The notes: generated by a model not told the origin, from the sequence alone. A DNA stretch of 64,000 nucleotides from Candidatus Shapirobacteria bacterium (GCA_043817235.1 JBDRHA010000011.1:191769-255768), one strand, 5' to 3'. Positions 4,902 to 64,000 are shown, numbered from the stretch's first letter. Translations and numbers: made by a program.

Positions 4902-4933
4902 AGGTTATTAATAGCACCAATTAAGCCTCCTTG

Positions 4934-7662: not shown

Positions 7663-7722
7663 AAACTTAGGTATATTTTAACAAACTTTCTTTCAGAACT
7701 AAATTAGGTTATCTTAAAGAAG

Positions 7723-8349: not shown

Positions 8350-8352
8350 GTT

Positions 8353-8913
8353 TTAACTTTTTCGGCTAACGTATTCGCCGGTTTCCGCATTGACCACTAT
8401 TTCTTCACCCTTTTTAATAAAAAGAGGAACTTTAACAACCAAGCCATTATCAAGTGTGGCCGGCTTAGTGGCCGCCGAAACTGTATCGCCTCGAACACCC
8501 TTTTCAGTTTTCTCTACCTTAAAAGCAATTTTTTTCGGTAAGCTTATCCCTACTACCTGGCTTTCCCAAAACAAAAGACCGTAAGTTTCACTTGTCTTTA
8601 AATATTTTTCCTCCTCCTTAATAATTTTTCTTTCCACGCTGATCTGGTCGAAGCTTCCAGGATTCATAAAGACTGCTTGAAAACCATCAAAATATAAAAA
8701 TTGATAGTGCTCATTAGTTACCTCAATTTCTTCCACTTTATCATCTGTAATTAAAGTTTCTTTAATTACTTTGCCGGTTTTTAAATTTTTCAATTTTAAT
8801 CTAGTTACGGCATGGCCACGGCCCGGATTAAAAAATTCTTTAGCCACGATTACCACTGGTTCACCTCGCCAGTTTAAAAAAGAGCCTTTGTTTAAGTTTC
8901 CTGCTTTAGTCAT
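8353..8913 (-). CDS. efp: elongation factor P
   Basis: 186 aa, three-domain EF-P with the KPGKGxA-like loop (NPGRGHA) near the N-terminus. Confidence 0.85.
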   Translation of the reverse strand: MTKAGNLNKGSFLNWRGEPVVIVAKEFFNPGRGHAVTRLKLKNLKTGKVIKETLITDDKVEEIEVTNEHYQFLYFDGFQAVFMNPGSFDQISVERKIIKEEEKYLKTSETYGLLFWESQVVGISLPKKIAFKVEKTEKGVRGDTVSAATKPATLDNGLVVKVPLFIKKGEEIVVNAETGEYVSRKS

Positions 8914-8916
8914 TTT

Positions 8917-42725: not shown

Positions 42726-43580
42726 TTATGCCAACGCCGTCTTTTTCGCTTGAATCTGTAATGGGGGAATAATTTTCCCTTTGGTCTCAATTTTAATTAT
42801 AGCAAAAGAAAAAGGCTCTTTTTCCACCAAAACTAAATATTGACCATTTGGCAAGGGGGTAGCTGTTTGAAACTGTCCTAAAGAATTAGAGCGCATTGCT
42901 CTAATTGGATTGCCCTCTAAGTCTTGAATCTCCACAATTGCTCCCTCCAAAGTCCTGCCTTCCAGATCCATTATCAAACCATTAATTATATTGGGAACCG
43001 TGGGAGTAGCCGGAAGAGATATTTTTAAATACTCCGGAGAGCTGGACTCCAGTTTTTGCTTTGGTGTATTTTTCCTAATCATTTGAATGATTTCGTCCGA
43101 AGAAGGGCTCCCCTCTTTTTCTGAAGGTGGCAAAATTGTTTCTTGTTTTTCTTTTTCCTGAACGACTGGGGCGGGCGGAATAACCCTTTTTTCCGGTACT
43201 TTTGGCGTCTTAGCCGGATTTTCTACCGGAGTAGAAAGAACCTGGCTAAAAACCGGCACAGGGGTCGGCTTGTAAAAAGAATATTTGGGGAAAAAGGGCT
43301 TTTTCCAAATAAATACAGTGGGAGAATAAGCCGCCCGAAAAAAAGAAACCAGCCAGTATTCCAAGGGCCTGTCGTTAAAAGGCAGAAAGGCTGTCCCTAT
43401 CCCCAACAAAAGAATAGCCAAGCTCAAAGGAAAACGCAAAACAGAAGTCAGGCCAGAATGAAAAAGCAAATAGGCAAAGACAACCCCCGCTGCTAGTTTT
43501 AAAAATTGGTTTAAAGTCATGCTTCCTACTAAACGAAATTCGTAAGAGGATATTTCTTGTGGTATTGGGTACTGGTTCAT
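42726..43580 (-). CDS. VirB3-like membrane protein with Pro/Thr-rich linker and C-terminal carboxypeptidase-regulatory-like beta-sandwich domain
   Basis: two N-terminal TM helices immediately upstream of VirB4 (position typical of VirB3/PrgI); C-terminal LEGAIVEIQDLEGNPI...GQYLVLVEK resembles a CarbopepD_reg fold. Confidence 0.45.
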   Translation of the reverse strand: MNQYPIPQEISSYEFRLVGSMTLNQFLKLAAGVVFAYLLFHSGLTSVLRFPLSLAILLLGIGTAFLPFNDRPLEYWLVSFFRAAYSPTVFIWKKPFFPKYSFYKPTPVPVFSQVLSTPVENPAKTPKVPEKRVIPPAPVVQEKEKQETILPPSEKEGSPSSDEIIQMIRKNTPKQKLESSSPEYLKISLPATPTVPNIINGLIMDLEGRTLEGAIVEIQDLEGNPIRAMRSNSLGQFQTATPLPNGQYLVLVEKEPFSFAIIKIETKGKIIPPLQIQAKKTALA

Positions 43581-49026: not shown

Positions 49027-49053
49027 TAGATTATTTTATCATGGCAAAAAAAG

Positions 49054-49127
49054 TGGACGCGCCAGGACTCGAACCTGGGACCTCTTGCTCATAAGGCAAG
49101 CGCTCTCACCGACTGAGCTACGCGTCC
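49054..49127 (-). tRNA. tRNA with anticodon TAT (UAU; tRNA-Ile reading AUA), no encoded CCA
   Basis: manual fold: acceptor GGACGCG/CGCGTCC, D-arm GCTC..GAGC, anticodon stem CTTGC/GCAAG with loop CTTATGA, T-arm CCAGG TTCGAGT CCTGG; 74 nt. Confidence 0.7.
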
Positions 49128-49314: not shown

Positions 49315-50782
<1,468 letters not shown>

Positions 50783-51599: not shown

Positions 51600-51902
51600 T
51601 TAGCCGGTAAGAATACTAATCCCAAAAATCACTTCGATAGCCCGGATAATAAACCAAGATAAAAATACTACTACAAAGCCCACAATTCCCATCATTACTC
51701 TGCTCCGGCCGCTGGCTACTTTCTCCGGGTTGCCCCCGGAAACCATCATTTCAAACCCGCCAAAAATAATCATTACTAACATAATTATTCCCGCCAGAGG
51801 AATGATATATTTCCACAATTCGGTAAAAACACCCGCAATATCAGTAAATTTAGCAGATACTGTAGAGCTTGGAATATCAAAATTAGCGGCATGAACTTTC
51901 AT
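51600..51902 (-). CDS. VirB2/TrbC-like two-helix pilin-family protein (paralog 1)
   Basis: 100 aa; hydrophobic helix - loop SGGNPEKVASGRSR - hydrophobic helix ending IRAIEVIFG; same architecture as seven other ORFs in the window. Confidence 0.55.
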   Translation of the reverse strand: MKVHAANFDIPSSTVSAKFTDIAGVFTELWKYIIPLAGIIMLVMIIFGGFEMMVSGGNPEKVASGRSRVMMGIVGFVVVFLSWFIIRAIEVIFGISILTG

Positions 51903-51911
51903 GTTATTAAT

Positions 51912-52670
51912 TTAATAATTTAATCCCGGCAAGCTTAATAAATCTACTCCAATGAATCTTAACAGAAAAAGAGAAAAAATCATAAAAAGCAGGCCGGAAA
52001 TTGCGCTTGTTACATAAGCTTGGCCTTGTTTTACTTTCTCCGGGTTGCCGCCGGAGGTAATAATCTGAAAAGCGCCAAAAATCATCAAAAGCAAAGCAAT
52101 TCCGCCGGCAATCCCCATGAAATTCCCAAAAAACCAATTAACAAACTCACTGGTATTATTAATCGGAATACACCCCAAAGCAGTATCAATACCGGTCTCA
52201 CCATTACAAAACCCAGGAAAAAAAACCGAAGTTCCTGGCGTTGGGGTAGGGGCAATAGTGAACATGCTTGAAATTTCGCAGGTATGGTCGTGAGTATCAC
52301 AAACCAGACCAGAAGAACATGTTCCACCTGGGCAGCAATTGTCGCCTACCGACATACCGCAAGCTGGCGTTGGGGATCCGTAATGACAGCCCACGCAAGT
52401 TGTAGGGGTTGGCGCAGGAGTTGAGACAGAAGTTGGCGATGGAGTTGGAGTTATTACTAAGGGAGGAGTAGGTGTATTAGCCGGAGGTTGACAATAGTGT
52501 TCGAAACAAGTAAATGCTGGCGCACCGCAACAAGGCACATTACCATCTCCACAATCATGATAATTATCTATACAATCTGCAGCGAAAGATTTCAGGGGAG
52601 AAATAGAAGCTACAAATAAAAAAAGCGCAAAGAAAAATATCTTTCTAATCACAATTTTTAAATTACTCAC
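51912..52670 (-). CDS. pilin-family protein with N-terminal signal peptide, two Cys-rich modules and Pro/Thr linker fused to a C-terminal two-helix pilin domain (paralog 2)
   Basis: signal peptide; CIDNYHDCGDGNVPCCGAPAFTC... and CVGCHYGSPTPACGMSVGDNCCPGGTC... modules separated by TPTPP repeats; C-terminal GAFQIITSGGNPEKVKQGQAYV...LLRFIGV pilin-like domain. Confidence 0.55.
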   Translation of the reverse strand: MSNLKIVIRKIFFFALFLFVASISPLKSFAADCIDNYHDCGDGNVPCCGAPAFTCFEHYCQPPANTPTPPLVITPTPSPTSVSTPAPTPTTCVGCHYGSPTPACGMSVGDNCCPGGTCSSGLVCDTHDHTCEISSMFTIAPTPTPGTSVFFPGFCNGETGIDTALGCIPINNTSEFVNWFFGNFMGIAGGIALLLMIFGAFQIITSGGNPEKVKQGQAYVTSAISGLLFMIFSLFLLRFIGVDLLSLPGLNY

Positions 52671-53547
52671 TCTTTTTAGATTTTTCTTTTAAGTATTTAA
52701 CTATTAATTGGGCAATGTCTAAATTGGCACGCTTTTCCATCACATAAAATTCCGGGGCTTGGTTCACTTCAATTACTACCGGCTTGTTATTTCTTTTATC
52801 CATCACCAAGTCAACACCGGCAATTTCCACACCCAAAATTTTAGCTGCCTTTTCGGCTTCGGCAGCCACATCCTCAGGGATTTTTTCTAAAATTTGGGAG
52901 CTGCCCGCCGAGCGATTCAAAATCAATTGTTTTTCTTTAGCCTGGCGTTTAAAACCGGTAATAACTTTATAACCGACTAAAAACAAGCGATAATCGCCAT
53001 CATTGGGAATATAATCTTGAATTAAAAAGTTAATACTTGTCCGACCTTGCAAAACTCTATTTAACGCTAAATCGTCCTCGATTAAAAAGGTTCCTTGGCC
53101 ATGCCGGCCGGCCGTAGATTTTATAACCACCGGCTTCGGCTCAGCTTCCACCACTTTTTTAAGATCTTCCCGGTCAGAAACAAAACTGCTTTTCGGATAA
53201 CTCACTCCAGCCCGCAGCAACATTATTGCCTCCGAAGATTTTCTTTTTCGAAAAGCGCCGCCTAATTTGTTCAAATAGTCATCAACTATCGGAATTTTAT
53301 GCTCTTTGGCATATTCCAAAAGCAAAGGCAAGTGCTCATTTTTATCTCCCACTGAGCGAAAATAAAATAAAGAAAAATCCTTTAAAGGCTGGTCTTGAAA
53401 ATAGATCTCCCATTCTTTTTGGATTCCCTCAATTTTAAGAGCTGAATAATGAATAGGAACAAGATCAATTTCTTCTTTTTTAGCCGCCTTAACTAACTTC
53501 TCACCGGAATCAGTCCAGGCCGTATAAAAAAAGGCAATTTTTTTCAT
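52663..53547 (-). CDS. RimK-family ATP-grasp ligase (alpha-L-glutamate ligase-like)
   Basis: 294 aa; ATP-grasp core VVIKSTAGRHGQGTFLI...DYRLFLVG...GVDLVMDKRNNKPVVIEVNQAPEF. Confidence 0.7.
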   Translation of the reverse strand: MKKIAFFYTAWTDSGEKLVKAAKKEEIDLVPIHYSALKIEGIQKEWEIYFQDQPLKDFSLFYFRSVGDKNEHLPLLLEYAKEHKIPIVDDYLNKLGGAFRKRKSSEAIMLLRAGVSYPKSSFVSDREDLKKVVEAEPKPVVIKSTAGRHGQGTFLIEDDLALNRVLQGRTSINFLIQDYIPNDGDYRLFLVGYKVITGFKRQAKEKQLILNRSAGSSQILEKIPEDVAAEAEKAAKILGVEIAGVDLVMDKRNNKPVVIEVNQAPEFYVMEKRANLDIAQLIVKYLKEKSKKSE

Positions 53548-53585
53548 TTGTTGATTATTATTTATTTCATTCTAACACAAAGCCT

Positions 53586-54914
53586 TTAAACTGCAGGGCC
53601 GGTAGTCACCGGCTCCGGCTTGACCAAAAATCCACCCAGATCCCGCCGGCCAATAAGCATTGGCGTATTTAGATGCGAGCGCTTGGTTACATTGGCTGCG
53701 GTTTTAATTTTCCGTCCCTTTAAGTAAAAGGTCAAAGCAATCACCGGCCGCTCGTGTTTGCGAGCTAAAGCCGAGCGATAGTGCCGATAAAAAAGAATAT
53801 TATCCGGATCAAGCAAGCCCAATCCCTTAGCAAAATCCTCGTCAATTGAAGAGCGTAGAGCGCCAGTATCAATTTTGGCCAAAAGCTCGTGACGCTTGCC
53901 CTTTTTCCCTTTAATTTTAACGGTTTCCAAAACTTCTACAACTTTAATCCCCTCTTCCGCCTTTACTTTATCCACAAAGCTTTCGCCAAATAGAGTTTGG
54001 GCAATTTTTACCGCATGATCGACATTCCTGACCTTCAAGCCTTCGGCTTTTTCCAAACGAATGCGCAATCCTGCCCGATTACTTATTTGAATCGATAACC
54101 CCGGCCGAGCATTAAGCTCCACCACCATTGGCCCTTTATCTTTATCCAAAAAAATATCCGCCCCAAAGTAACTCAACCCTTCTATAGCAAAAGAGCATTC
54201 TATGCTCGTTTGCAAAATTCTTTTCCACTCAGGAATTTTAATGCCATTAACTTTTATCCACTTTTTTCTTTTTAAATCAAAGATTTTCGTTATTATTTGC
54301 TGTTTTCCCTGCACACCATAAGTAGTAATGCCGGTGGCTAAATCAATACCTAAACCAATCGCCCCCTGCTCCAAGTTAGCCTTGCCGCGTGATTCCTCGG
54401 TAGGGATGCGCATCATGGCCATCACCGGAATTTTATTGTAAACTACTACCCGAATGTCCGGGGTGCCGGTTTTGGTAAAGCGCAAAAACTTGGGATGAAT
54501 TTTTACTCGCTCTTCCACTAACACTCGATCAGGAAAACCACCTAAGCTATACCGGCCTTCTAAAATATCTAAACAATGATAATGCAAATCAGAGATGCCC
54601 ACTTTTGTGCCATCCGCCAAAAACCATTCTCCGGCAAACTTGCCTTTTTTCTTGACTACCCACACCCCCTGCCCACCCGAACCGGAAGTTGGCTTAACAA
54701 CAAAGCTTGTGTCTGCCTCCTGCCAAGAAAAGCCGCTTACCTGGCGCGGATTTTTAAAAAGAGCAATTAGTTTGGGAACCGGAATACCGGCTCTGGCAAG
54801 CACTTTTTTGGTCCAGGCTTTAGAATTAGCAATTGACCGGCCGCGCGAAGAATTTTTGCGCAGATAAGTCATGGAGCGAATATTTTTAGTAAGAACTTCG
54901 TTTTTAGAAGCCAC
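53586..54914 (-). CDS. ATP-grasp ligase fused to a C-terminal retropepsin-like (DUF785-type, D-T-G-A) protease domain
   Basis: N-terminal ATP-grasp FVVKPTSGSGGQGVWVV...DIRVVVYN...GPMVVELNARPG; C-terminal LLAKIDTGALRSSID aspartic-protease-like motif. Confidence 0.6.
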   Translation of the reverse strand: MASKNEVLTKNIRSMTYLRKNSSRGRSIANSKAWTKKVLARAGIPVPKLIALFKNPRQVSGFSWQEADTSFVVKPTSGSGGQGVWVVKKKGKFAGEWFLADGTKVGISDLHYHCLDILEGRYSLGGFPDRVLVEERVKIHPKFLRFTKTGTPDIRVVVYNKIPVMAMMRIPTEESRGKANLEQGAIGLGIDLATGITTYGVQGKQQIITKIFDLKRKKWIKVNGIKIPEWKRILQTSIECSFAIEGLSYFGADIFLDKDKGPMVVELNARPGLSIQISNRAGLRIRLEKAEGLKVRNVDHAVKIAQTLFGESFVDKVKAEEGIKVVEVLETVKIKGKKGKRHELLAKIDTGALRSSIDEDFAKGLGLLDPDNILFYRHYRSALARKHERPVIALTFYLKGRKIKTAANVTKRSHLNTPMLIGRRDLGGFLVKPEPVTTGPAV

Positions 54915-54919
54915 GCTTT

Positions 54920-55807
54920 TTACCTTTCTAAAACCGCCTTAAATCGTTTGTGCTCCAGCAAACGCCAGCCCGTGTATTTGCCAATAAGCAAATTCAAAAC
55001 CAAAACAGCCAAAAAAGAAAGTTCCGGATTAAGTAAAACCAGCTCTTGAAGTTTTTCCCAAGCCATTAAAGAAGCACCTAAAATGGAAATTACTAAGGTG
55101 CCAATAGTTAAGCTCATCGCGCTTCTTTTAGATTTTCCCAGCTGAACGCGGGTAAATTCTTCGGAAAGCAAAATAAGAAAGAGGATCGGGAAAATAGAAA
55201 TTTGAGTTAAATCAAGAAGGCTCAAAGAAGGAGAAACTGCCAAAAAGCCAAAAGTAATTAAAGAAATAATCATTAAAGTAATCGCTCTTCTTGGCCAGTA
55301 AAAGATTTTTACTTTTTTCAAGCTCCGGCCGGCCAAAACCGTAGAAATTAAAATTACCGCAAAAAGAAAAAGGCCGCCGACAATTCCGGTGGCCAAAAAA
55401 GTAATGGCAATCATCGCCGGCATAAAAATGCCAAAACCAGGAACGCCAATGCCGTACTGAACTGCACCCACCAGAGCCCCTACCAAAGGAAGAAGTAAAA
55501 TCAAAATAATAGTGTTAGCCGGCACACCGCGGCTAACGGCAAAACGAACACTGTATTTTAAAAAGTTATCTAAAGAAAGCGGCCCTAGATTTTGCTCGTC
55601 TAAAAGCGCTTCCAGCTTGCCTTTGGTTTTTATATTCTTAGGCTCAGTAATATTTTCTTTAACAGCTACTGTAGTAGGTATTGCCGAAGCAGTTGATTCC
55701 TGTCCTTGGGGCTCAAGACTAGGGTTAGGAACAATAGTGACCGCGCCAGCCGGCAAAGCGAAAAGAAAAAACAAAGCAAGAAATAGCACTAGTTTTTTAG
55801 TAAGCAT
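54920..55807 (-). CDS. 7TM-type membrane protein with N-terminal signal peptide and extracellular domain (7TM-receptor partner of ATP-grasp systems)
   Basis: signal peptide, ~90-aa extracytoplasmic region, then about seven hydrophobic helices; first gene of the three-gene operon with the two ATP-grasp enzymes. Confidence 0.5.
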   Translation of the reverse strand: MLTKKLVLFLALFFLFALPAGAVTIVPNPSLEPQGQESTASAIPTTVAVKENITEPKNIKTKGKLEALLDEQNLGPLSLDNFLKYSVRFAVSRGVPANTIILILLLPLVGALVGAVQYGIGVPGFGIFMPAMIAITFLATGIVGGLFLFAVILISTVLAGRSLKKVKIFYWPRRAITLMIISLITFGFLAVSPSLSLLDLTQISIFPILFLILLSEEFTRVQLGKSKRSAMSLTIGTLVISILGASLMAWEKLQELVLLNPELSFLAVLVLNLLIGKYTGWRLLEHKRFKAVLER

Positions 55808-55891
55808 GGGCTTATTTTATCAGGAAACAGGCAAAAAAACAGTAATTTGAAGATTTTTCGACAAAAATATTCCTTGGGCATTAGCATAAGC

Positions 55892-55922
55892 TTAGCAAAT
55901 TCCAACCACTTATGCTATAATT
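55892..55922 (+). promoter_or_regulatory. candidate promoter -35 TTAGCA (55892-55897) / -10 TATAAT (55917-55922) giving a leaderless or near-leaderless mRNA for the 55931 ORF
   Basis: perfect -10 hexamer 8 nt upstream of the ATG; no Shine-Dalgarno sequence. Confidence 0.4.
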
Positions 55923-55930
55923 TTGGCTAA

Positions 55931-57859
55931 ATGACAAGCGAAAGAGACGGCCTTCCCCCAGACGAAATTCTTTCTCGGTATGCCGATGAAGAGGACAGAG
56001 GAGGGAAAAAGGGTAAAGAGCATTTCAGAACTTCTATTGGAACCCACGTCGAAGGAGCAATTGATCACTTTAATCGGATGACCACGGAAGAACTGGCGTC
56101 CAATGAAGAAATACTTTCTGCGTTTAGAGAAACTGTATTCGACGCGATTGCTTTTTACGAGGGTCTTCCCGGAACAAGCGGGTATAATTTTGATCGTCCA
56201 GCTCTAGATGCTGAAGCCCGAAGAAAGTTATCAGGAGAAGAGCGGAAACAAATTGAGCAACAAATCAGAAGGTCAAGACTACAAACAATGCTTTTTGAAC
56301 GCTTGTTTCTTTCCCGCGAAGGATCCCGCGAAAGACCTTATTCCTATGTCTCGGCAAAAATAGAAGAAGCAACTTTTGAAAGACGCTGGCGAATAGATCA
56401 AGAAAGAAAAATACGAGCCCGAGAAAAAGATAGGGGGCCGATCAGCAGAGAGCAACAAAAGGCAGAGGAAAATTTAGAAACAGAGCTTTTTGCTCTTTAT
56501 CTTCATCATGAGGCGCGAACACTAATAGACGAGGCTTTTAAGCAAAGACAATTTTATGCTGAAGATTCTGGCTCTACTAAAGAGGCTTTAAGCCGAGGAA
56601 AAACTATTGATTGGCGAATTCCTATTTATCCCGATCGAGTCGATTGGGCCGCTGCCTTCACTGAAATTGTCGCCAGCAAATTCGGCGATAAGGTCGATAA
56701 AACATTGCGAAAAATAGTTGATATTGGCGAACGCGGGCTTAAGAAAAATGGAGAAACCTTAATTGAGCACCCATACGCTGAAGGAATTGTTAAAACCGAG
56801 CACTTTACTGAATTTATCAAACAAATTTATGAGGCGGCTGATCAAGATATGGGCGCTGCCTGGTTAAGTTGGCGTTTAGCTTTGCTCTGGGAAATACCCA
56901 GTAAGTATGGAGTAGCTATTAAGAAAAAGCCGCTAACGCTTCCAGACGGGAGAGAGATAGAGGGATATATTCCGGTAGTCGGCGACGCTCCTTTGACCGC
57001 AGATTGGTATTCCAGTACAGCATTCTTGGATTTTGAACGATTTATTGAAGGCGGCTGGTATATTGATCCCAAGGACGAAGCCGGCAAAAAAAAACTTGAG
57101 GCTTCTCTTCAGGATCCGGCTAAACTAAGAGAGCTCCTTACAGCTCATCGCCACTTGGTAGAAATGTTTTACAACAAGATTGGCCTGCCTCTAAACCTAG
57201 GCAGAATCGGCTCCATTGCACCGGCCACCTACTTAGAGAGCGCCAAAGGGAAATTCGCCAAGAAGGACGGTAATGGCAATATTATTAGAAACCAAAATGG
57301 AGAACCGGTACTTGAAGATAAGCCCACCAGTTTTTGGCAAAAATGGAGAGAAGGGGTGCCATTAAAAGATCTGCCTTGGTGGGAAACGGAGCAAGTGGCT
57401 ACAGGAACCGAAGAAGCTACGCCTACCGGCTCCTTTCAGTTTTGGGCTTTTGTCAACCGTATCCGCGCTCTCTCGATTGCTGATCTGGTCACCAACATGC
57501 CCGGTCCTCAAGATTTAGTAGATTTTAAAACTTGGAAAAGTCTAGCGAGAAACTGGTCAAAATTAAAACTTGACCAAGACGCAAGGAAATGGCTAATTCT
57601 TTCCTGGATTTACCCCTACGTCGGCTTAATAAATAACTATGGAACTAAAGAAGCGGAAAGAGATCTTGGAGCTAGAGTCTTAAATATGGGAGAGCAAATG
57701 GGAGATTATCCCTTAACAAACGCAAAGCCCGGCATGCCAACCATAGACTCCGCTCTAGCAAACGCTTTCAGGGCTAAATTTATTACCAAAGAAGATATTG
57801 ACTGGATAAAAAAGACTATCTCGAAAAAACCAACCGAGATAGTTTCCCTCAGAGATTAA
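55931..57859 (+). CDS. large hypothetical cytoplasmic protein, Arg/Glu-rich, no recognisable domain
   Basis: 642 aa, no signal peptide or TM; higher GC and Arg content than surrounding Lys-rich genes; only plus-strand gene in a 13-kb minus-strand block. Confidence 0.5.
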   Translation: MTSERDGLPPDEILSRYADEEDRGGKKGKEHFRTSIGTHVEGAIDHFNRMTTEELASNEEILSAFRETVFDAIAFYEGLPGTSGYNFDRPALDAEARRKLSGEERKQIEQQIRRSRLQTMLFERLFLSREGSRERPYSYVSAKIEEATFERRWRIDQERKIRAREKDRGPISREQQKAEENLETELFALYLHHEARTLIDEAFKQRQFYAEDSGSTKEALSRGKTIDWRIPIYPDRVDWAAAFTEIVASKFGDKVDKTLRKIVDIGERGLKKNGETLIEHPYAEGIVKTEHFTEFIKQIYEAADQDMGAAWLSWRLALLWEIPSKYGVAIKKKPLTLPDGREIEGYIPVVGDAPLTADWYSSTAFLDFERFIEGGWYIDPKDEAGKKKLEASLQDPAKLRELLTAHRHLVEMFYNKIGLPLNLGRIGSIAPATYLESAKGKFAKKDGNGNIIRNQNGEPVLEDKPTSFWQKWREGVPLKDLPWWETEQVATGTEEATPTGSFQFWAFVNRIRALSIADLVTNMPGPQDLVDFKTWKSLARNWSKLKLDQDARKWLILSWIYPYVGLINNYGTKEAERDLGARVLNMGEQMGDYPLTNAKPGMPTIDSALANAFRAKFITKEDIDWIKKTISKKPTEIVSLRD

Positions 57860-57867
57860 GGGCTTGA

Positions 57868-59520
57868 CTAAACACCAAGCTTTTTTCTCATCCCGCCAAC
57901 AAAACCAGTCATTGTCTCTTTTACTGCAGTCCTTCTGGCACCAGCGCCAGCACCGACAACTCCTGCTGCTCTAGGATACTTGGCAACAAGTTTATTGAAG
58001 AATGCATCTTGAGCTCCTTGGCTTTCGGCATAGGAAGCTGCTGCACTCATTGCTGTTCCCCCCATGATCTTTACCGGAGCAAAAGCCGCGCCGATCATGC
58101 CGCCAATGCCAGAGTCCTTAATTCCAAATGCTCCTCGAACAATGTCGGGCACATTAGGAAGAATCAAAAGAAACCCAATTCCAATAATTGACTTCACAAA
58201 AGCCCCCGCAACCGCTCCGCTAATTGCGCCAAAAATCGGAAGATCCGGCGGACCCATCAAGGGCGGGTACCACATAGCTCCACCTTGCACAACACTAAAA
58301 CTAATCGCTGAACCAATAATAATGACCAGGATAACAGCCGGGAAAACTAAGATATTGGCGGCCAAGTTTTTGAGCCAAGAACCAAAGCCTCCTGGTGATC
58401 CGGGAATGACCCCAACAGCAATTAAAACCGGCGAAAAAATTATCGATAAAACAATGTTAATGTAGGTTTTTATTAAAGCAATTAAAAGCTTGAAGAAAAG
58501 AAAAATAGCAATAAGAATCCAGGCCAAAGCAAAGAGCAAGCCGCCGAGACCCGCGGTAGCAAGACTTGGAAAAATAGTAGCTCCAATTATGGCACCCAAT
58601 AGAGAGAAGAAAGGGAAACCACCTATCAAAGCGCCAAATACCGCTACAAAACCTCCTTGTGTTGCCATCCAATTAGCCGCTGTCTGATTCACAAGGTAAG
58701 GACTCATTATCCCGCCTCCGGCAGAAGACCTTAGAATAGCAATGCTTAAAGCAATAACCACGTACATTAAATCAATCATAAATCCGGCAATCGCGTAAGA
58801 GAAGGTAATAAGGACCAAAACTCCTATCAGTCGAGGCAAAGCGTTTTCTACCGTTAAAACAGTCTGAGGAGAAATCTTGACTCGAAACATAATCATTAAG
58901 CCCACTATTAGCATCGCCACAGCGAAAATAGAATAAGCCACATTACGAAATGCTTGCCAGATAGGCAAAATTGGTTCCAATCCCGCAAAACCAATCCCAT
59001 TGGCCGCGTAAGCAGGAGCGGCTCCTAAACGATGCAAAAGATTATAAGCATAATATACTCCGGAAGCAGGAGGATTTTGATACATAGAGGCGATCAGCTT
59101 TGTGGTGACCCCCATCGCTCCGCCGGAAAAATACCAATCACCAGGAGGCATTAATAGCGCGCCAGGAGGTAAAGAAGAGGGGTTGCTTGCGTTGTTGGGA
59201 TCATAGGTCTCCTCTGCTGTGCCAAGCACGGCGGTAATCAAGGCCTTAGCAGCTAACAGCATTAATCCTTCGCTTTCAAATTCCTCCCCTCCATCTACCA
59301 TTCGGCCCACTAACCAATGGGCCAAACTCGGAACTGGATCCCTTAGAAAACCAGTAAACTTTGTGAATTCCTCCTTAATGCCTAAAACCTCTCCTTGGCT
59401 GGCCTGAGTTGAAGAAGAGGGTAAACTCGAAACTGCATCTGCTTTCCTCGTTAAGCCAAAAAATAAAAAACCCAGGCTTAAAAAGAGCAAAGCTATAAAC
59501 AGAAGTATTTTTTTTCTCAT
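57868..59520 (-). CDS. VirB6/TrbL-like polytopic membrane protein
   Basis: 550 aa; signal peptide, ~200-aa periplasmic domain, then at least six Gly/Ala-rich TM helices; located between the pilin-like gene arrays. Confidence 0.4.
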   Translation of the reverse strand: MRKKILLFIALLFLSLGFLFFGLTRKADAVSSLPSSSTQASQGEVLGIKEEFTKFTGFLRDPVPSLAHWLVGRMVDGGEEFESEGLMLLAAKALITAVLGTAEETYDPNNASNPSSLPPGALLMPPGDWYFSGGAMGVTTKLIASMYQNPPASGVYYAYNLLHRLGAAPAYAANGIGFAGLEPILPIWQAFRNVAYSIFAVAMLIVGLMIMFRVKISPQTVLTVENALPRLIGVLVLITFSYAIAGFMIDLMYVVIALSIAILRSSAGGGIMSPYLVNQTAANWMATQGGFVAVFGALIGGFPFFSLLGAIIGATIFPSLATAGLGGLLFALAWILIAIFLFFKLLIALIKTYINIVLSIIFSPVLIAVGVIPGSPGGFGSWLKNLAANILVFPAVILVIIIGSAISFSVVQGGAMWYPPLMGPPDLPIFGAISGAVAGAFVKSIIGIGFLLILPNVPDIVRGAFGIKDSGIGGMIGAAFAPVKIMGGTAMSAAASYAESQGAQDAFFNKLVAKYPRAAGVVGAGAGARRTAVKETMTGFVGGMRKKLGV

Positions 59521-59558
59521 TCCTTTATATTAAAAACTAAATTCCATTCAAAATCAAG

Positions 59559-61745
59559 TTACCACCCGGGCGGGGTGAGAATATCAAACATATAATTATA
59601 AGTATCGTCTTCTCCTTTAGTTCCATAATTTGTGCCTTTCTTTCTGCCTGGCTGATCAGAATACTCAATTTCTATTTCCGCCGCCTCATATTCATGAGCC
59701 TCGCCTGGCAGTGTAAAAGGCATAGATACCGGCTGGCGGTAAATAATTTCCGCTGATTTTGTCCAGGGCGTATGGATAATTGGAATAATAACATAAGTAT
59801 TGCTTTCGAAAATGGGCTTTAAGATATTATTAATAAGCTGCGTTACCCAATCTCCCCAATCTAAAATGATCCTTAAAGCTCCTCCAACAGAAACCGGTTG
59901 TTTATCCATTATCCCTCCCAAATCATAAGCGCCTATCTCGCAAGTTGGCGGATCAGGCATAGGAATATCCTGAGCTCCAGTAAAAGAACAATTGGTCTCT
60001 CCCGCTACAACAGTACAATTACTGCCAATAGCCGGGTGGCCTGACGGGTACTGCACTTGATCATCAGAACCATAGTTATAATTAACTACTTCTAGATTAA
60101 ACGAGCAGTTTTCTCCTAAAGGGCAATTGAAAGTATGCGAATAAACATTAGGCGCCGCACCCGGGCCAGGAACCGCATTAATGCCTAAAAACTCACCATT
60201 CATACTCACCCACATATGGCCATTTCTTACGTTACCGTTAACACTAACCGTGCAGGTAACACTGGATCCTGAACGAGAACAACTGGATGAAGAGTCAAGA
60301 ATAAAATTAAATTCGCCGGAATTTCCCGGAGCCAGCAAAACATATCCTTCCTGTTTTTCTTTTTGACTGAAGCTGCTTTTCTGGAAAAGTCCTGCGCTAG
60401 CACTTAAAGGATGGGCAATGTTCATTCCTGGTAAGGAAAAATAATCGCCTACCTGATAATTAGCCGTAGCCATCTGCTGGTAATAAGCAGGAGCTTCAAA
60501 CCAAAGCATTTCATCACCCAGCTTTCGAGGCCATTCTTTTTCATCCTTTTTACAATAATAAAATTCCACAAAGCCTTTGCTTTTTTCTATTTTCGTCTTA
60601 TTTTCTTCCTCCGGCAAAATTATTTTTTTTAAAGCTTCATCCGAAGAACTGCCAACCGGTTTAATATTGGCTACTTCGAAATATTCCAACATTAATTCTT
60701 TCACTGTTTCTTTAAGATCCCCTTCACTTCCGCTAATTTCAAAGGCCTCACCCAAAGTCTTGCCATAATCGTCGCCCAAGCCCAAGCCTCCCGGACCGGA
60801 GAGGCCGATTAAGGAAAAGTCGCCGTATTCCGCTACCTGCCAGTTGCCATTGGCATCCTTGTACATAAAATACTGTTTGCCGGTTTGATCATCCATAAAC
60901 AAGAAAGTAATCGCATCCGCCGGTATTCCCGCTGCTTCCAGCTTTGTCGCAAATTCCCGAGCACTATTAAGGCGCGACTGAATATCTACTCCCGGGTTTA
61001 AGCCAGCCTCAGGAATAATAAAAGTTTTTCCGGCCAAATTAACTCCCAAGCTTTCTAGACTGGACCGGAAATTATTAAATTGATTAACAAAATCAGCGAC
61101 GGCCGCATCCATATTTCCGCCGCTGTAATCAGCGTAAAAACTGCCGGCCCAAACCGGAATCTGGTTTAAGCAATCACCAGAGCAATAAGATTGAACTTGG
61201 CGCAAAAACTCCACATACTGATACATCGATCCGCCAAAGGGGTTTCCACCCGTAGGATTACTGGTATTAAAATTAGTAGTGCCAACAGGCACGCTGATTC
61301 CGTTCGCCGGGTTTAAAGCCATTTCCAAAATCCGAGCATATTCTTGAGGATTGCCGCCAAAATAATTATATTCTGTAAAAAGACTGATTGTTCCCGTGTT
61401 TATTTGGGAAAGCTGGGGCAGCCAGTAGCTTTGAAACTCTGAAGCCGAAGTCGTGTGCCAATCTTCCGGCTGCCAAATTATTTCTACATTATATTCAGCG
61501 GCCGCTCTTTCAATATTTTCAATTAAGCCCGGAAAGGCTCTAAGCTCCGAGGAAACTAATCGAACCGTAGCCGATCCATTTTGCAAACGCTCAAAGGCCG
61601 CCGTGTTAAAAGTGCCATTAGGACTGTAAAAATTGTTGACAATATTATAGCCAAAGTCATTGACGCTATCTGCTAAAGCCAAAGAAGGAAAAGCAAGGGG
61701 TAAAAAAGATGCCACAATAAAAACCAAAACCCAGAGTTTTCTCAT
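59559..61745 (-). CDS. secreted Cys-rich hypothetical protein (N-terminal half possibly glycoside-hydrolase-like TIM barrel)
   Basis: 728 aa; clear signal peptide MRKLWVLVFIVASFLPLAFPSLALA; many Cys in the C-terminal half (CSRSGSSVTC, CPLGENC, CTVVAGETNC). Confidence 0.45.
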   Translation of the reverse strand: MRKLWVLVFIVASFLPLAFPSLALADSVNDFGYNIVNNFYSPNGTFNTAAFERLQNGSATVRLVSSELRAFPGLIENIERAAAEYNVEIIWQPEDWHTTSASEFQSYWLPQLSQINTGTISLFTEYNYFGGNPQEYARILEMALNPANGISVPVGTTNFNTSNPTGGNPFGGSMYQYVEFLRQVQSYCSGDCLNQIPVWAGSFYADYSGGNMDAAVADFVNQFNNFRSSLESLGVNLAGKTFIIPEAGLNPGVDIQSRLNSAREFATKLEAAGIPADAITFLFMDDQTGKQYFMYKDANGNWQVAEYGDFSLIGLSGPGGLGLGDDYGKTLGEAFEISGSEGDLKETVKELMLEYFEVANIKPVGSSSDEALKKIILPEEENKTKIEKSKGFVEFYYCKKDEKEWPRKLGDEMLWFEAPAYYQQMATANYQVGDYFSLPGMNIAHPLSASAGLFQKSSFSQKEKQEGYVLLAPGNSGEFNFILDSSSSCSRSGSSVTCTVSVNGNVRNGHMWVSMNGEFLGINAVPGPGAAPNVYSHTFNCPLGENCSFNLEVVNYNYGSDDQVQYPSGHPAIGSNCTVVAGETNCSFTGAQDIPMPDPPTCEIGAYDLGGIMDKQPVSVGGALRIILDWGDWVTQLINNILKPIFESNTYVIIPIIHTPWTKSAEIIYRQPVSMPFTLPGEAHEYEAAEIEIEYSDQPGRKKGTNYGTKGEDDTYNYMFDILTPPGW

Positions 61746-61763
61746 GCGCTAATTTTAGGGTAT

Positions 61764-62114
61764 TTATTGAGGGATGGCAAATTCAGTGACCTCAACGCCA
61801 GTAAAATTCTTAATAAATACTAAAATAAACCAGGCAAGAATCGCTAACACTAGGCCAAAAATAGCCATAGTAAACGTTCCTCTGGCCTTTTGCGCTCCTT
61901 CTTGGCTGCCGCCGGAAGTCAAAAGCTGAAATCCGCCAACAATAATCATTACTCCGACAGCCAAGCCCAGCAGACGCAACGCAACTCCCAAGATATTTTC
62001 GACCATCCCTTCAATATGCGCAAAAGTTGCCACATCCGCTTGAGCCCAGACCGAAGAAGCGCCAAAAGCCAGGTAAGCCACTAAGCATAATAGCCAAGCT
62101 TTAGTTTTTTTCAT
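61764..62114 (-). CDS. VirB2/TrbC-like pilin-family protein (paralog 3)
   Basis: signal peptide plus two hydrophobic helices flanking the loop TSGGSQEGAQKARG. Confidence 0.55.
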   Translation of the reverse strand: MKKTKAWLLCLVAYLAFGASSVWAQADVATFAHIEGMVENILGVALRLLGLAVGVMIIVGGFQLLTSGGSQEGAQKARGTFTMAIFGLVLAILAWFILVFIKNFTGVEVTEFAIPQ

Positions 62115-62153
62115 CTTGCCAATAATTGGAACTAAATTCCCTAATCTAATCGC

Positions 62154-62507
62154 TTAGAAGACTGTTGGGAACGTCAAAGTCTCCAAAAGATCAATTCCAA
62201 AGACCGCTTGAATTAATCTTAAGATAGCCCAAGCGCTAAATACTACAACCAAGCCAACTAAGGCATTTTGTACTTGGCCCTGAGCTGTCTTGACTTTGGT
62301 CTCATCACCCTCGGACATGATCCACTTAATTCCGCCTAAAACCAGCATTACAAAAAATATTAGACCGGCGCCAATCAGCAGAAAATTAATTACGCCTTTA
62401 ACTAAATTAGAAACGTTTACCTGATCAAGTTTGTCAAATTGGTTAGGCGCATTTAAATCAATAGTCTTGTCGTCAGGAGCAGCCAAAACTTGATTTACTA
62501 AAGACAT
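62154..62507 (-). CDS. VirB2/TrbC-like pilin-family protein (paralog 4)
   Basis: two-helix architecture, loop MSEGDETKVKTAQGQVQNAL. Confidence 0.55.
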   Translation of the reverse strand: MSLVNQVLAAPDDKTIDLNAPNQFDKLDQVNVSNLVKGVINFLLIGAGLIFFVMLVLGGIKWIMSEGDETKVKTAQGQVQNALVGLVVVFSAWAILRLIQAVFGIDLLETLTFPTVF

Positions 62508-62592
62508 TTTATTCTTTCACCTCCTCTCGATTTATAATTTATTTACTTTTTAATAATAACGAGATAATTCTTGCTTTGCAATTAGCAATTTA

Positions 62593-62943
62593 TTAAATAA
62601 GCGGAATTAGCGGAATACCTAAGCCTTGCAACTGGCTAATCCCAAAAATAAAGCCAATCAGCTTAATTAAAGCATAAACGGAAAAAATAATCACTAAGCC
62701 AATTAAGGCGTTTTGGACTTTATCGCGAGCCGCTTTTACTTTAGTCTCGTCCCCTTCAGAGCCAATCCAGGAAATTCCGGCTAGTAAAAACTGGATAAAA
62801 AAGAAAATAATCGCCACCGTTAAAAAAATGCCAATAACCCCGCTAATAATTTTATTTTGAAAAAGATCAGCAGCTGCCGTATGATCCGGCGTTCTTAAAG
62901 GGTTAGCATCCGGAATTAAAGGATTTTCAAGTCTGCCAGCCAT
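62593..62943 (-). CDS. VirB2/TrbC-like pilin-family protein (paralog 5)
   Basis: loop GSEGDETKVKAARDKVQNAL; ~70% identical to paralog 4 in the C-terminal half. Confidence 0.55.
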   Translation of the reverse strand: MAGRLENPLIPDANPLRTPDHTAAADLFQNKIISGVIGIFLTVAIIFFFIQFLLAGISWIGSEGDETKVKAARDKVQNALIGLVIIFSVYALIKLIGFIFGISQLQGLGIPLIPLI

Positions 62944-62945
62944 GT

Positions 62946-63311
62946 TTAAAAATCAAAAAACGTAGTAATAATATTAAGATCAAGCAAATCAATTCCGCCC
63001 AGCAAATAGCCAAGCAAGCCGACAAAAGCCATAGCCAAGAAAATAATCGTAATCCCTAAAACACTTTGCCAAAGCGTTTGCTGGGCGGCCTGCACTTTTT
63101 GAGCATCTCCGCCAGCCGTCATCCAGCCAAAGCCAGCCAAAACAATCCTGATCACAAAATAGACTACGGCCGCTAAGGTAATAAAGCCAATTACTCCGGA
63201 AAGGACTGTGGCTGTTCTACCCACCGGATTATTGGTAGGCTGGCCAATATCACCCGCCCCCCGGAAGGGAGTGAAAAACACTTCATCAACTGTCGCCAAA
63301 AGCTTATTCAT
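62946..63311 (-). CDS. VirB2/TrbC-like pilin-family protein (paralog 6)
   Basis: loop TAGGDAQKVQAAQQTLWQSVLG. Confidence 0.55.
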   Translation of the reverse strand: MNKLLATVDEVFFTPFRGAGDIGQPTNNPVGRTATVLSGVIGFITLAAVVYFVIRIVLAGFGWMTAGGDAQKVQAAQQTLWQSVLGITIIFLAMAFVGLLGYLLGGIDLLDLNIITTFFDF

Positions 63312-63313
63312 TT

Positions 63314-63700
63314 TTATTGTGGTCTATAAAGTCTAGGAACCAGTAAAAAGCTAGTGTCCTTGAAAATAATTTGGCCGATCAAGCCAGCCAAAATAAAAGA
63401 AGAGGCAACAATGACTAGACCTAATAAACTTTGCCAGATTTTGGCCCATGCCGCCTCAATTTGATCAGAATTGCCACCGGCACTAATAAAGCCAAAGCCG
63501 GCAAATATTAGGTTAAACAAAGTAAAAATTCCCGCGCCGAAAATAAGCAGTTTAATAGCAATGCCAATAAAATTAAATAAACCAGCTGGTGTGCCCGTAT
63601 CTCCTCCAGATAAAGGTGCGATTGCCGCCGGCGGCTCAATATTGCCAATAGTTGCCGCAAAAAAAAGATTTCTATATTTTTCCAGTTTCAACCTTTTCAT
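63314..63700 (-). CDS. VirB2/TrbC-like pilin-family protein (paralog 7)
   Basis: loop SAGGNSDQIEAAWAKIWQSLLG. Confidence 0.5.
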   Translation of the reverse strand: MKRLKLEKYRNLFFAATIGNIEPPAAIAPLSGGDTGTPAGLFNFIGIAIKLLIFGAGIFTLFNLIFAGFGFISAGGNSDQIEAAWAKIWQSLLGLVIVASSFILAGLIGQIIFKDTSFLLVPRLYRPQ

Positions 63701-63704
63701 TCTT

Positions 63705-64000
63705 TTAAAGCCCGGAGTTAATAATACTTGCTCCGGTAATTACCTCTATCGCTCTTACTATAAAATAACTTAAAATTATTAAAATAAAGCCTAAAAGTGC
63801 CGCCCCAATTGCTTTCCCCCCTTGCTGAACTTTGCCACTGTCTCCACTGCCAGCTCCTACAATCATACCCCAGCCCCCAATAATAATCAAAATCAAGAAA
63901 ATTAAGGCGGCAACAGCATAAGCATTAGCAATAAGAGTGGAAACTAAGTGGCCAGGATCGGTAAACTTTACCTTGTAAAAAGTGCCAATATTAAAAGCCC
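63705..64000 (-). CDS. VirB2/TrbC-like pilin-family protein (paralog 8), 5' end beyond window
   Basis: the reading frame stays open upstream of the listed TTG start to the window edge (..DPGHLVSTLIANAYAVAALIFLILIIIGGWGMIVGAGSGDSGKVQQGGKAIGAALLGFILIILSYFIVRAIEVITG). Confidence 0.5.
   Translation of the reverse strand, partial: AFNIGTFYKVKFTDPGHLVSTLIANAYAVAALIFLILIIIGGWGMIVGAGSGDSGKVQQGGKAIGAALLGFILIILSYFIVRAIEVITGASIINSGL

Follow-up and report, generated by a model that had tools for sequence, protein, structure and literature searches.

Conserved genes beside a VirB2-like pilin array in Candidatus Shapirobacteria: a probable vertically inherited module of the Patescibacteria T4SS

T4SS loci with arrays of VirB2-like pilins have been described in the Patescibacteria from Southlakia epibionticum (SEML1_0006-0019; Wang et al. 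2023, PMC10633639), and the T4SS of this group has been surveyed (Quinonero-Coronel et al. 2025, PMC12102498). The DNA discussed here, hereafter the window, is a stretch of 64,000 nucleotides from Candidatus Shapirobacteria, an ultra-small bacterium belonging to the Patescibacteria, class Microgenomatia; a 100% identical protein bears the same taxon name. Like the described systems, its system is chromosomal and conserved and combines a monoderm-type (MPF-FATA-like) VirB4 with PrgI/VirB3 and tandem divergent VirB2-like pilins, and the annotated ORFs, a subset of the ORFs of the window, include neither a relaxase gene nor one for a coupling protein. Unlike in those systems, the pilin array is followed here by a GH-A-type secreted protein (728 aa), a polytopic membrane protein (550 aa) and a convergent gene for an unannotated cytoplasmic family (642 aa), and 14 kb of DNA, which carries housekeeping genes and the 16S rRNA gene, separates this module from virB4. 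None of the three proteins is named as a component in the two published accounts cited above. The three genes and the pilin array probably constitute a vertically inherited module, the distal half of the Patescibacteria T4SS/VirB2-like pilus system as found in Microgenomatia, and not an acquired island. Against it count this 14-kb separation, the absence of statistically solid homology between the 550-aa family and VirB6/PrgH, the Thr before the putative acid/base Glu of the 728-aa protein, and the unrelated convergent genes of two related loci (L007 and L008). This reading draws on gene content, synteny, the fold of the GH domain with its Glu pair, membrane topology and codon usage, from which we infer the functional roles proposed below.

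The features are collected in Table 1. The three ORFs called in the first-pass annotation agree with it in coordinates, strand and length, and the 642-aa gene is indeed alone on the plus strand, but the surrounding minus-strand block, given as 13 kb, spans 51600-63700, about 12 kb. Pilin genes 1-3 of the array match Pfam PF18895, genes 4 and 5 match a local HMM made from Pfam-verified pilins (6e-18 and 2e-13), and the sixth, partial at the window end, was recognised by translation. The separate pair of pilin-like genes matches PF18895 at 7e-12 and 5.7e-5 and NF045849 (Mbov_0395 pilin-like) at 5.4e-5. The terminator-like hairpin is downstream of the 550-aa gene and falls within the 3'-terminal codons of the gene for the 642-aa protein.

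Table 1. Features of the module and of the related T4SS genes in the window
Feature	Position	Strand	Description
642-aa gene	55931-57859	+	ORF; cytoplasmic, mostly helical, Arg- and Trp-rich product of uncharacterised family
550-aa gene	57868-59520	-	ORF; polytopic membrane protein
728-aa gene	59559-61745	-	ORF; Sec-secreted product, GH-A-like barrel and Cys-containing C-terminal half
Promoter-like site, 642-aa gene	55892-55921	+	TTAGCA, 18-nt spacer, TG-extended TATAAT (TTAGCA-18-TGcTATAAT)
Terminator-like hairpin	57808-57843	-	CTATCTCG / CGAGATAG, then T run; consensus match only
Promoter-like site, 728-aa gene	61752-61780	-	TTGCCA-17-TAAAAT, end 6 nt before ATG; consensus match only
Tandem VirB2-like pilin array, at least 6 genes	61764-64000	-	6th gene runs past window end
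Pilin genes 1-5 of array	61764-62114, 62154-62507, 62593-62943, 62946-63311, 63314-63700	-	
Two more pilin-like genes (100 aa, 252 aa)	51600-52670	-	beyond ATP-grasp/7TM genes
Proximal T4SS operon, same genome	40136-43580	-	
PrgI/VirB3-like gene	42726-43580	-	proximal T4SS operon
249-aa protein gene	41967-42716	-	proximal T4SS operon
VirB4-like ATPase gene	40136-41977	-	proximal T4SS operon

The order of six to seven pilins, a large secreted protein, a polytopic protein of 480-550 aa and a convergent 642-family gene is shared by the window and four related loci (L001, L002, L006 and L015), and the order including the flanking genes is kept in relatives with proteins just 24-66% identical. With L001 the whole neighbourhood is colinear (36-71% identity). 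The pair of 642-family and 550-family genes is present also in L014, L017 and L018, and the two genes stand tail-to-tail, with gaps of 1-216 nt, in all eight lineages whose 3' flank could be checked. Pilin arrays lie upstream of the 550-family gene in the window, L001, L002, L006, L007 and L015; in L008 there is none beside it. The connection with the VirB4/PrgI unit varies in distance to the 550-family gene, from one or two genes (L014/L016) through at most 7 kb (L015) to the 14 kb of the window. In two lineages the 642-family gene has the three-gene operon of PrgI, a further protein and VirB4, as known from the window, for a neighbour. In one of them (L020, L014 and L016) the two adjoin and diverge, the run being PrgI, a 277-aa protein, VirB4 and an M23 peptidase (the sequence of L020 stops before its 550-family gene); in the other (L015) the arrangement is the same but for toxin-antitoxin insertions between them.

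The description of the 550-aa protein as a VirB6-like membrane protein gains support from topology, gene context and family matches which are weak but convergent. Hydropathy, the sole basis of the topology, gives eight hydrophobic segments, laid out as an N-terminal signal/anchor, an outside domain of about 170 aa between segments 1 and 2, about seven TM helices (194-458) and a basic cytoplasmic tail of 92 aa; the protein thus has the at least five TM helices and the large extracytoplasmic domain of the VirB6 type. There are at least 445 homologues, none with a Pfam domain on record, and nearly all of those named by taxon are Patescibacteria. When 85 family members were scanned, the three NCBIfam families matched by most members were all monoderm conjugation TM proteins (NF045848 with eight members, NF045890 with four and NF045889 with three, 15 member-matches in all), and the lowest Pfam E-value (7.3e-4, one member) fell on TrbL/VirB6 (PF04610); these matches are below the curated cut-offs and each is marginal after correction for 85 queries. 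The window protein itself has no Pfam or NCBIfam match to PF04610 TrbL/VirB6 or PrgH, and a PDB profile search as well as hhalign against Agrobacterium tumefaciens VirB6 and pCF10 PrgH were negative. The gene is encoded with T4SS genes, VirB2-like pilins adjoining it and VirB3/VirB4 being in the same genome. On this weak but convergent evidence the 550-aa protein is a candidate VirB6-type channel or pilus-platform subunit.

The 642-aa protein had been described as lacking a TM segment, a signal peptide and any recognisable catalytic motif, and this is confirmed: it has neither of the first two, nor any Cys, and no match was found in Pfam, NCBIfam or PDB, to a housekeeping family or otherwise, even with a 35-member profile. 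The family comprises about 80 clusters in 1.84 billion (1.84e9) proteins, and the predicted structure is of low confidence (pLDDT 47.8). The near-leaderless promoter reported for the gene was also found again; the extended -10 promoter-like site stops 9 nt short of the ATG, so that the mRNA would be leaderless or have a leader of 1-3 nt. This layout is kept in eight of nine distinct homologous loci; in L001, L002, L006, L013, L015, L017 and L018 an equivalent TGnTAnAAT precedes the ATG by 6-9 nt. Since a -10-like hexamer also stands 5-11 nt before the start of 11 of the 61 ORFs in the window, a near-start -10 is a recurring trait of this genome.

In L007 and L008 the gene convergent with the 550-family gene is a different, unrelated one, so the 642 family is no universal component. 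For the 642-aa protein the first-pass annotation proposed a secreted effector/toxin or a regulator, and a part of the machine is a further candidate role. The proteins in this slot (1107 aa in L007, 1191 aa in L008) are large, hydrophilic, Arg/Lys-rich and TM-free, and this raises the possibility, rather doubtful on balance, that the 642-aa protein is no part of the machine but a translocated T4SS substrate (effector), and that the slot convergent with the VirB6-like gene is a cargo position. Consistent with this, the gene has its own promoter on the opposite strand, the protein has no signal peptide and it diverges at the rate of exported proteins (39% identity to L001, versus 62-71% for neighbouring cytoplasmic enzymes); moreover, reviews speculate on the delivery of effectors to the host by the T4SS (PMC11665869). 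However, strict single-copy adjacency that persists to an identity of about 24% would sooner be expected of a machine-associated factor. Moreover, searches with the protein turned up neither a known effector domain nor a toxin fold, T4SS secretion signals are not recognisable in this system, and no small immunity-like gene adjoins its gene.

The 728-aa protein had been predicted to have a signal peptide, a possible TIM-barrel hydrolase-like N-terminal half and a Cys-rich C-terminal half, and all three were upheld, the last as a Cys-containing half. The Sec signal peptide comprises residues 1-25 (cleavage ALA|DS), and eight of the ten Cys follow residue 390. Residues of about 30-310 have the fold of a clan GH-A-like (beta/alpha)8 barrel, and the top structural matches all belong to clan GH-A (enzymes for beta-glucans, xylans, mannans, galactans and exopolysaccharide), although no Pfam GH family match was obtained. 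Two Glu residues are invariant in nine homologues: E125 (FTEYNY, after beta4), which follows strand 119-121/123 and is the putative acid/base residue as judged by sequence and secondary structure, not by superposition, and E246 (IIPEAG, beta7), the putative nucleophile, which is within strand 241-249 and which hhalign places opposite the Glu of LTETG in the A5 family. The residue before the putative acid/base Glu is Thr (T124-E125) and not the Asn of clan GH-A. Other lineages have in this gene position proteins that cannot be aligned with it but contain canonical GH-A motifs, namely EPWNEP and LTETG in A5 and GNEVN and IIAELG in L015, the Asn being present in EPWNEP and GNEVN; the protein of L002 has a weak PF11790 match. 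For the 728-aa protein we infer a retaining enzyme of the beta-glycosidase type, whose variable C-terminal part would be stabilised by Cys.

Its target might be the cell's own wall, that is, the protein might be a functional VirB1 analogue which opens the wall for pilus or channel assembly and is not directed at the host. In favour of this, the gene is part of the pilin/VirB6-like operon, Patescibacteria seldom have VirB1 homologues and other glycosidases have been suggested as possible substitutes (PMC12102498), and conservation is strong in the GH domain, the beta-rich, Cys-containing C-terminal half being variable. This role is nevertheless unlikely: the clan GH-A matches include no fold of a peptidoglycan muramidase or lytic transglycosylase, and dedicated candidates for wall hydrolysis are found in related loci, such as the M23 peptidase after VirB4 (L020) and a CHAP protein (L001).

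Slow rearrangement alone could in principle have kept the 642-aa gene, as an unrelated housekeeping or other neighbour, next to the 550-aa gene, for synteny among L002, L006 and L007 extends to other unrelated genes (RNase H, DUF4012, VanW and Fpg) as well. This is improbable, because the genes upstream of the 642-family gene vary between lineages (7TM_transglut, VanW, the PrgI-VirB4 operon, toxin-antitoxin pairs) while the downstream 550-family gene is constant in eight of eight, and because a family confined to those few clusters matches no housekeeping family.

The first-pass annotation had further regarded the three genes as a compositionally distinct island of higher GC content and arginine usage, consistent with horizontal acquisition. 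The GC content of the region is 0.4385 versus 0.395 in the rest of the window without rRNA, about 4 points richer and third among 84 windows of 5.8 kb, and it belongs to the upper tail by dinucleotide distance (rank 8 of 84) and by tetranucleotide distance (rank 4 of 84). The 642-, 550- and 728-aa genes have GC contents of 0.441, 0.454 and 0.428, respectively, against a mean of 0.398 (sd 0.034). The excess, however, sits in codon position 2 (GC2 0.41-0.46 versus 0.35), while GC3 (0.383, 0.392 and 0.387 versus 0.365, sd 0.041) is merely 0.4 to 0.7 sd higher and the synonymous codon-usage distances to other genes (0.076, 0.057 and 0.059 versus a mean of 0.071, sd 0.013, with 21 genes of at least 300 aa as reference) are ordinary, that is, average or lower. 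Because of this, the GC excess is attributed to amino-acid composition. Equally GC-rich genes occur elsewhere in the window (e.g., 37887-40121, 0.458, and 53586-54914, 0.448), the neighbouring pilin genes of the same system are in the same GC range, and the 23S and 16S rRNA genes account for the GC peaks at 28-31 kb and 49-51 kb, respectively. Therefore, the higher GC stands for total GC, GC2 and oligonucleotide content but not for GC3 or synonymous codon usage, and the higher arginine usage stands for the 642-aa protein (7.5% versus a mean of 3.9%, sd 1.8%; R/(R+K) 0.49) but not for the 550-aa and 728-aa proteins (2.5% and 2.2%).

The block is flanked by pilins and a 7TM_transglut protein; tRNA, integrase and flanking repeats were sought at its borders and none was found, the nearest tRNA being at 49053 and the repeats being short chance ones only. 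No relative without the block at the same site was found among the handful of genomes inspected, and the four relatives named above for gene order have the same arrangement; since the block is syntenic at 24-66% protein identity, horizontal acquisition is unsupported. Although the Patescibacteria T4SS as a whole has been proposed to be anciently acquired from monoderms (PMC12102498), an island that combines a toxin/effector with a VirB6-like protein and a hydrolase is highly improbable and already largely refuted by ordinary GC3 and codon usage, an Arg excess in one gene, borders free of mobility signs, the GC range shared with the pilins and colinearity of block and flanks at 24-71% protein identity.

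If the three genes are a module of the pilus system, as preferred here, the pilins and the 728-aa protein would be exported by Sec, and the 550-aa protein would serve as the VirB6-type platform in the membrane, pilins being extracted from it and polymerised with energy from the VirB4/PrgI unit, whose genes are 14 kb distant. The 728-aa enzyme would act outside the cell on glycan, either of its own envelope or, more likely, of the host cell surface, perhaps at or near the pilus, its gene occupying the VirB5/VirB1 place of classical systems. The 642-aa protein would stay in the cytoplasm or start from there, and its function would be linked to that of the 550-aa protein: it would either dock, as an accessory or adaptor, on the basic C-terminal tail of the 550-aa protein or be a substrate which passes through the latter.

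Compared with VirB6/TrbL (PF04610) and the monoderm equivalents (PrgH, the "extended VirB6" of pLS20 and the Mycoplasma ICE TM proteins Mbov_0396/MMCAP2_0566), the 550-aa protein is likewise a polytopic inner-membrane protein with at least five TM helices and a sizeable outside domain, its gene stands beside pilin-like genes and the weak matches of its family land on these families. Unlike them, it has no significant direct match and is missed by the VirB6/PrgH models, its outside domain is N-terminal and not a central loop, and it has a cleavable-looking signal peptide. The 728-aa protein shares with clan GH-A (GH39 including PslG, GH5, GH1, GH53 and GH128) the (beta/alpha)8 barrel and, probably, the placing of two Glu, after strand 4 and in strand 7, both of them invariant; unlike these enzymes, to which it is just 7-15% identical, it lacks a Pfam GH family match, has Thr for Asn before the putative acid/base Glu, has its barrel fused to a Cys-containing C-terminal part of about 400 residues and is encoded in a pilus/T4SS operon. 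Like VirB1/PrgK/CwlT and VirB5, it is a Sec-exported non-pilin whose gene lies between the pilins and the VirB6-type gene, whereas its fold is neither lysozyme-like/SLT/CHAP nor that of the helical VirB5, with no homology detected. It could plausibly serve in hydrolysis or adhesion, at the envelope or at the tip.

The genes for the 642-, 550- and 728-aa proteins are best read as a distal, pilus-proximal type IV secretion system (T4SS) module of a Shapirobacteria-type bacterium. The three proteins are 100% identical to the hypothetical proteins ABIB61_04475, ABIB61_04480 and ABIB61_04485 of a Candidatus Shapirobacteria MAG (336-kb contig), which places the window in the Patescibacteria/CPR, class Microgenomatia. 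Pilin-like genes flank the three-gene block on both sides, and a 252-aa pilin-like protein of the window matches NF045849, the Mbov_0395/MMCAP2_0565 pilin-like family. The functional assignments of the module proteins are all inferential. Among the neighboring genes, a class A penicillin-binding protein (GC 0.458) directly follows the PrgI-like/249-aa/VirB4-like operon and a second one is also encoded, while an M23 peptidase occupies the position after VirB4 in L020, one of the homologous loci on other contigs. In addition, the 23S and 16S rRNA genes are unlinked, being on opposite strands and separated by about 19 kb, and the window contains three tRNA genes.

Coordinates of the module genes and of other features of the window
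Feature	Coordinates	Strand	Remark
23S rRNA gene	27773-30671	-	
Class A penicillin-binding protein (second)	33713-35857		
Class A penicillin-binding protein	37887-40121	-	
VirB4-like ATPase	40136-41977	-	
249-aa protein		-	in the PrgI-like/249-aa/VirB4-like operon
PrgI/VirB3-like protein	42726-43580	-	
tRNA-Ile, anticodon TAT	49053-49127	-	just before the 16S gene
16S rRNA gene	49315-50780	+	
Two ATP-grasp ligases and 7TM_transglut membrane protein	52663-55807	-	between two pilin groups
642-aa protein	55931-57859	+	
Terminator-like hairpin and T run of the 550/728 operon	57808-57843		within the 3'-terminal ~50 nt of the 642-aa CDS, which is convergent
550-aa protein	57868-59520	-	
728-aa protein	59559-61745	-	
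Sixth pilin gene of the array	63704-64000	-	runs past the window end; C-terminal part ...IIGGWGMIVGAGSGDSGKVQQGGKAIG...

The first-pass annotation regarded this block as a compositionally distinct, Arg-rich island consistent with horizontal acquisition. Its coordinates and strands for the three ORFs were exact, the 642-aa gene is indeed the sole plus-strand gene from 51600 to 63700, and the GC excess is real: 0.4385 in the three-gene stretch against 0.395 in the remaining window without rRNA, ranking third among 84 windows of equal length (the strongest peaks of the GC profile are due to the 23S and 16S rRNA genes). The surplus is located in codon positions 1 and especially 2, with GC2 of 0.41-0.46 against a mean of 0.35. 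GC3 is ordinary (0.383-0.392 for the three genes against 0.365, sd 0.041), and so is the distance in synonymous codon usage (0.076, 0.057 and 0.059 against 0.071, sd 0.013, for 21 long genes). Therefore, the GC shift reflects amino-acid composition, not a foreign mutational history. The 550-aa membrane protein is rich in Ala, Gly and Pro, the 728-aa exported protein in Gly, Ser, Pro and Asn, and the soluble 642-aa protein in Arg and Glu; the Arg enrichment holds for the last one (7.5% against 3.9%, sd 1.8%) and fails for the other two (2.5% and 2.2%). At the borders of the block neither a tRNA nor an integrase gene was found, and the repeats there are short and at chance level only. With ordinary GC3 and codon usage, no island borders and the same gene order in relatives, horizontal acquisition is not supported, a negative outcome that is useful in that the shift in GC is no evidence for gene transfer.

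The order shared by the relatives (L001, L002, L006 and L015) consists of 6-7 VirB2-like pilin genes, a large exported protein and a polytopic membrane protein of 480-550 aa, which faces a gene of the 642 family, that is, the homologues of the 642-aa protein. L001 is colinear with the window throughout, from uppS, two pilins, two ATP-grasp genes and 7TM_transglut to the module. Between the two, the flanking enzymes are 62-71% identical, the membrane protein 53%, the pilins 39-58%, the 642-aa protein 39% and the 728-aa protein 36%. The pattern is that of old genes inherited vertically, the exported and interaction-prone ones evolving fastest. In L001 (1-3512 and 17984-21899), yidC/rnpA and dnaN bracket the module, which is close to the presumed replication origin, and a 937-aa CHAP-domain protein comes after its pilin array; Patescibacteria T4SS loci have been reported near the replication origin. 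One of the two ATP-grasp ligases of the window is RimK-like and the other is of the ATPgrasp_ST type with a RimB-like Zn-protease C-terminus. This ligase/7TM_transglut trio, possibly a peptide-ligation system linked to the pilus genes, adjoins the module also in L001 (6830-9906) and L011 (532-1413), and lies about 8 kb from it in L002 (1-3065) and L006 (19378-21524).

In the 550-aa protein, the hydropathy profile gives an N-terminal signal or anchor with a possible cleavage site (ADA|VSS), an outside region of about 170 residues, about seven transmembrane segments from 194 to 458 and a basic tail of 92 residues. Its family (the 550 family) has at least 445 homologues, and those with a taxon name are nearly all from Patescibacteria. 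Neither the window protein nor a 26-member profile gave a match in Pfam, NCBIfam or PDB, and hhalign of the family against VirB6 (A. tumefaciens pTiC58) and PrgH (pCF10) as single sequences was also negative. VirB6 hits from a tblastn search of plasmids came almost exclusively from Rhizobiaceae. When 85 diverse members were scanned singly against NCBIfam and Pfam, the three NCBIfam families matched by most of them were all membrane proteins of monoderm conjugation systems: MMCAP2_0566 (8 of the 85 members, best E 8.6e-4), pLS20_p028 (4 of 85, 1.3e-3) and Mbov_0396 (3 of 85, 1.9e-4). The lowest Pfam E-value was that of TrbL/VirB6 (7.3e-4), and every one of these matches is marginal taken singly. 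In Mycoplasma ICEs the NF045849 pilin-like gene presumably adjoins the Mbov_0396/MMCAP2_0566 gene, as judged by consecutive locus-tag numbers. Because the matches concentrate on functionally coherent families, and because of topology and gene context, the best reading of the 550-aa protein is a VirB6-type role. This is consistent with a published survey in which VirB6 homologues were 'scarce' in Microgenomatia, 'suggesting extreme sequence divergence' (PMC12102498).

The 728-aa protein begins with a classical signal peptide (MRK, a hydrophobic core and ALA|DS). AlphaFold, supplied with nine homologues, gives a confident N-terminal domain (residues ~30-310, pLDDT 70-91) of alternating strands and helices, for which Foldseek ranks GH5/GH53 (E about 1e-5) above generic TIM barrels. 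Invariant in the family are E125 just after strand 4 (FTEYNY), E246 in strand 7 (IIPEAG), C188/C192 and an EDW motif after strand 3. By position, E125 and E246 are a putative catalytic pair, occupying the acid/base and nucleophile places of retaining GH-A enzymes, although Thr stands ahead of the acid/base where clan GH-A normally has Asn. BLAST does not align the 728-aa protein with the exported proteins that other lineages encode at this position. These carry canonical GH-A motifs, EPWNEP and LTETG in L002, L006 and L007, and VYFGNEVN and FIIAELGP in L015; the L002 protein has a weak match to PF11790 (GH128). Furthermore, in a profile-profile alignment of the 728-aa family with the EPWNEP/LTETG proteins the nucleophile Glu was superposed, although the match is weak (E 1.4e-3). 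The module thus repeatedly includes a secreted GH-A barrel that precedes a variable stretch containing Cys. In the 728-aa protein the C-terminal half is predicted with low confidence and is poorly conserved; it was described earlier as Cys-rich and does hold 8 of the 10 Cys, a modest number for such a term. In L008, a Roizmanbacteria-type locus, a Peptidase_C39_2-domain protein of 620 aa (7653-9515) replaces the GH-like exported protein.

Transmembrane segments and Cys are absent from the 642-aa protein, which contains 18 Trp and has a largely helical predicted structure. A word-indexed search found three relatives only and a scan of genome contigs for further related loci one locus only; an exhaustive profile search of 1.84 billion representatives gave 80 clusters. 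The conserved motifs include FPDRxDW, LRKIV, PYAEG, WRLALLWEI, EGGW, GxPLSxG, LPWWETE, FQFWA and NRxRA, with FIxxEDxxWI at the C-terminus. Pfam and NCBIfam scans matched none of the three window proteins, and a 35-member profile of the 642 family found nothing in Pfam, NCBIfam or PDB. The AF2 model, from an alignment of four sequences, has a pLDDT of 47.8 because alignment depth is lacking, and its fold matches are uninformative. Three identities were rejected: a Walker A ATPase (GGKKGKE is neither correctly spaced nor conserved), a relaxase (no invariant His or Tyr) and a HEPN protein (no Rx4-6H motif). An extended -10 box ends 9 nt ahead of the ATG, and the equivalent layout (6-9 nt) occurs in 8 of 9 distinct loci, a conserved spacing that makes leaderless expression of the gene likely. 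The promoter, signal peptide and TIM barrel proposed in the first-pass annotation were all borne out. A leaderless-type start is also present at the 728-aa gene. Of the 61 ORFs of the window, 11 have a -10-like hexamer 5-11 nt ahead of the start codon and only 13 an SD-like motif, counts which suggest frequent leaderless translation in this Shapirobacteria genome.

Two roles of the 642-aa protein are about equally open. An accessory role in the cytoplasm, serving the VirB6-like protein, would account for the strict pairing of the two genes: in 8 of 8 lineages with available flank the 642-family gene is tail-to-tail with the 550-family gene at gaps of 1-216 nt, and in the window the stop codons are 8 nt apart. 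A role as translocated substrate is favored by independent transcription, by divergence as fast as that of the exported proteins and by variability of the gene slot in other lineages. Opposite the 550-family gene, L007 and L008 instead encode unrelated hydrophilic proteins of 1107 and 1191 aa, respectively, for which hhalign found no relationship to the 642 family. The slot is at 12146-15469 in L007; that of L008 (11675-16052) holds a pilin-like 257-aa protein besides the charged 1191-aa one, and each of the two large proteins has a hydrophobic C-terminus, possibly a tail anchor. The upstream neighbors of the 642-family gene vary by lineage (7TM_transglut, VanW, the PrgI operon, toxin-antitoxin genes). 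In L014, L016 and L020 a PrgI/~277-aa/VirB4 operon followed by the M23 peptidase is directly divergent from it, and in L015 only HEPN/MNT toxin-antitoxin pairs intervene between the PrgI-VirB4 operon and this gene. The L015 insertion (4539-7831) comprises nucleotidyltransferase/HEPN-type genes: MNT-HepT pairs, of which there are at least two, and an additional HEPN gene. The 642-family gene is broken into two ORFs in L016 (3178-4943) and L020 (7884-9251) by a frameshift, pseudogene formation or an assembly error; the near-identical L014 copy is intact.

In Southlakia, the only Patescibacteria species tested, epibiotic growth requires the T4SS, the function and substrates of which are given as unknown in the literature (PMC10633639, PMC11665869). 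HMM surveys of Microgenomatia found VirB4, PrgI and pilin arrays, and almost no VirB6 or VirB1 (PMC12102498). In PMC10633639, PMC12102498 and PMC12857230 we did not find named a GH-A-type exported protein at the VirB5/VirB1 position, a widespread polytopic family as VirB6 candidate of Microgenomatia, or a 642-aa family locked to it. A joint reading, possible but tentative, is that the 550 family is the highly diverged 'missing' VirB6 of Microgenomatia, the GH-A protein a pilus-associated enzyme cutting host glycan, and the 642 family a hitherto unrecognised, lineage-specific Microgenomatia T4SS partner, either a cytoplasmic substrate receptor or adaptor replacing the coupling protein or a conserved cargo injected into host cells by the essential Patescibacteria T4SS. 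Candidates for the missing parts in this locus are the widespread polytopic family in the VirB6 position, the secreted clan GH-A enzyme, which recurs in the locus in three sequence-unrelated versions, and the cytoplasmic family with its gene locked to that of the VirB6-like protein; they offer testable handles on T4SS action at the host surface. Patescibacteria T4SS loci with pilin arrays have already been described (PMC10633639; PMC12102498; PMC12857230), and the module of the window is of the same kind.
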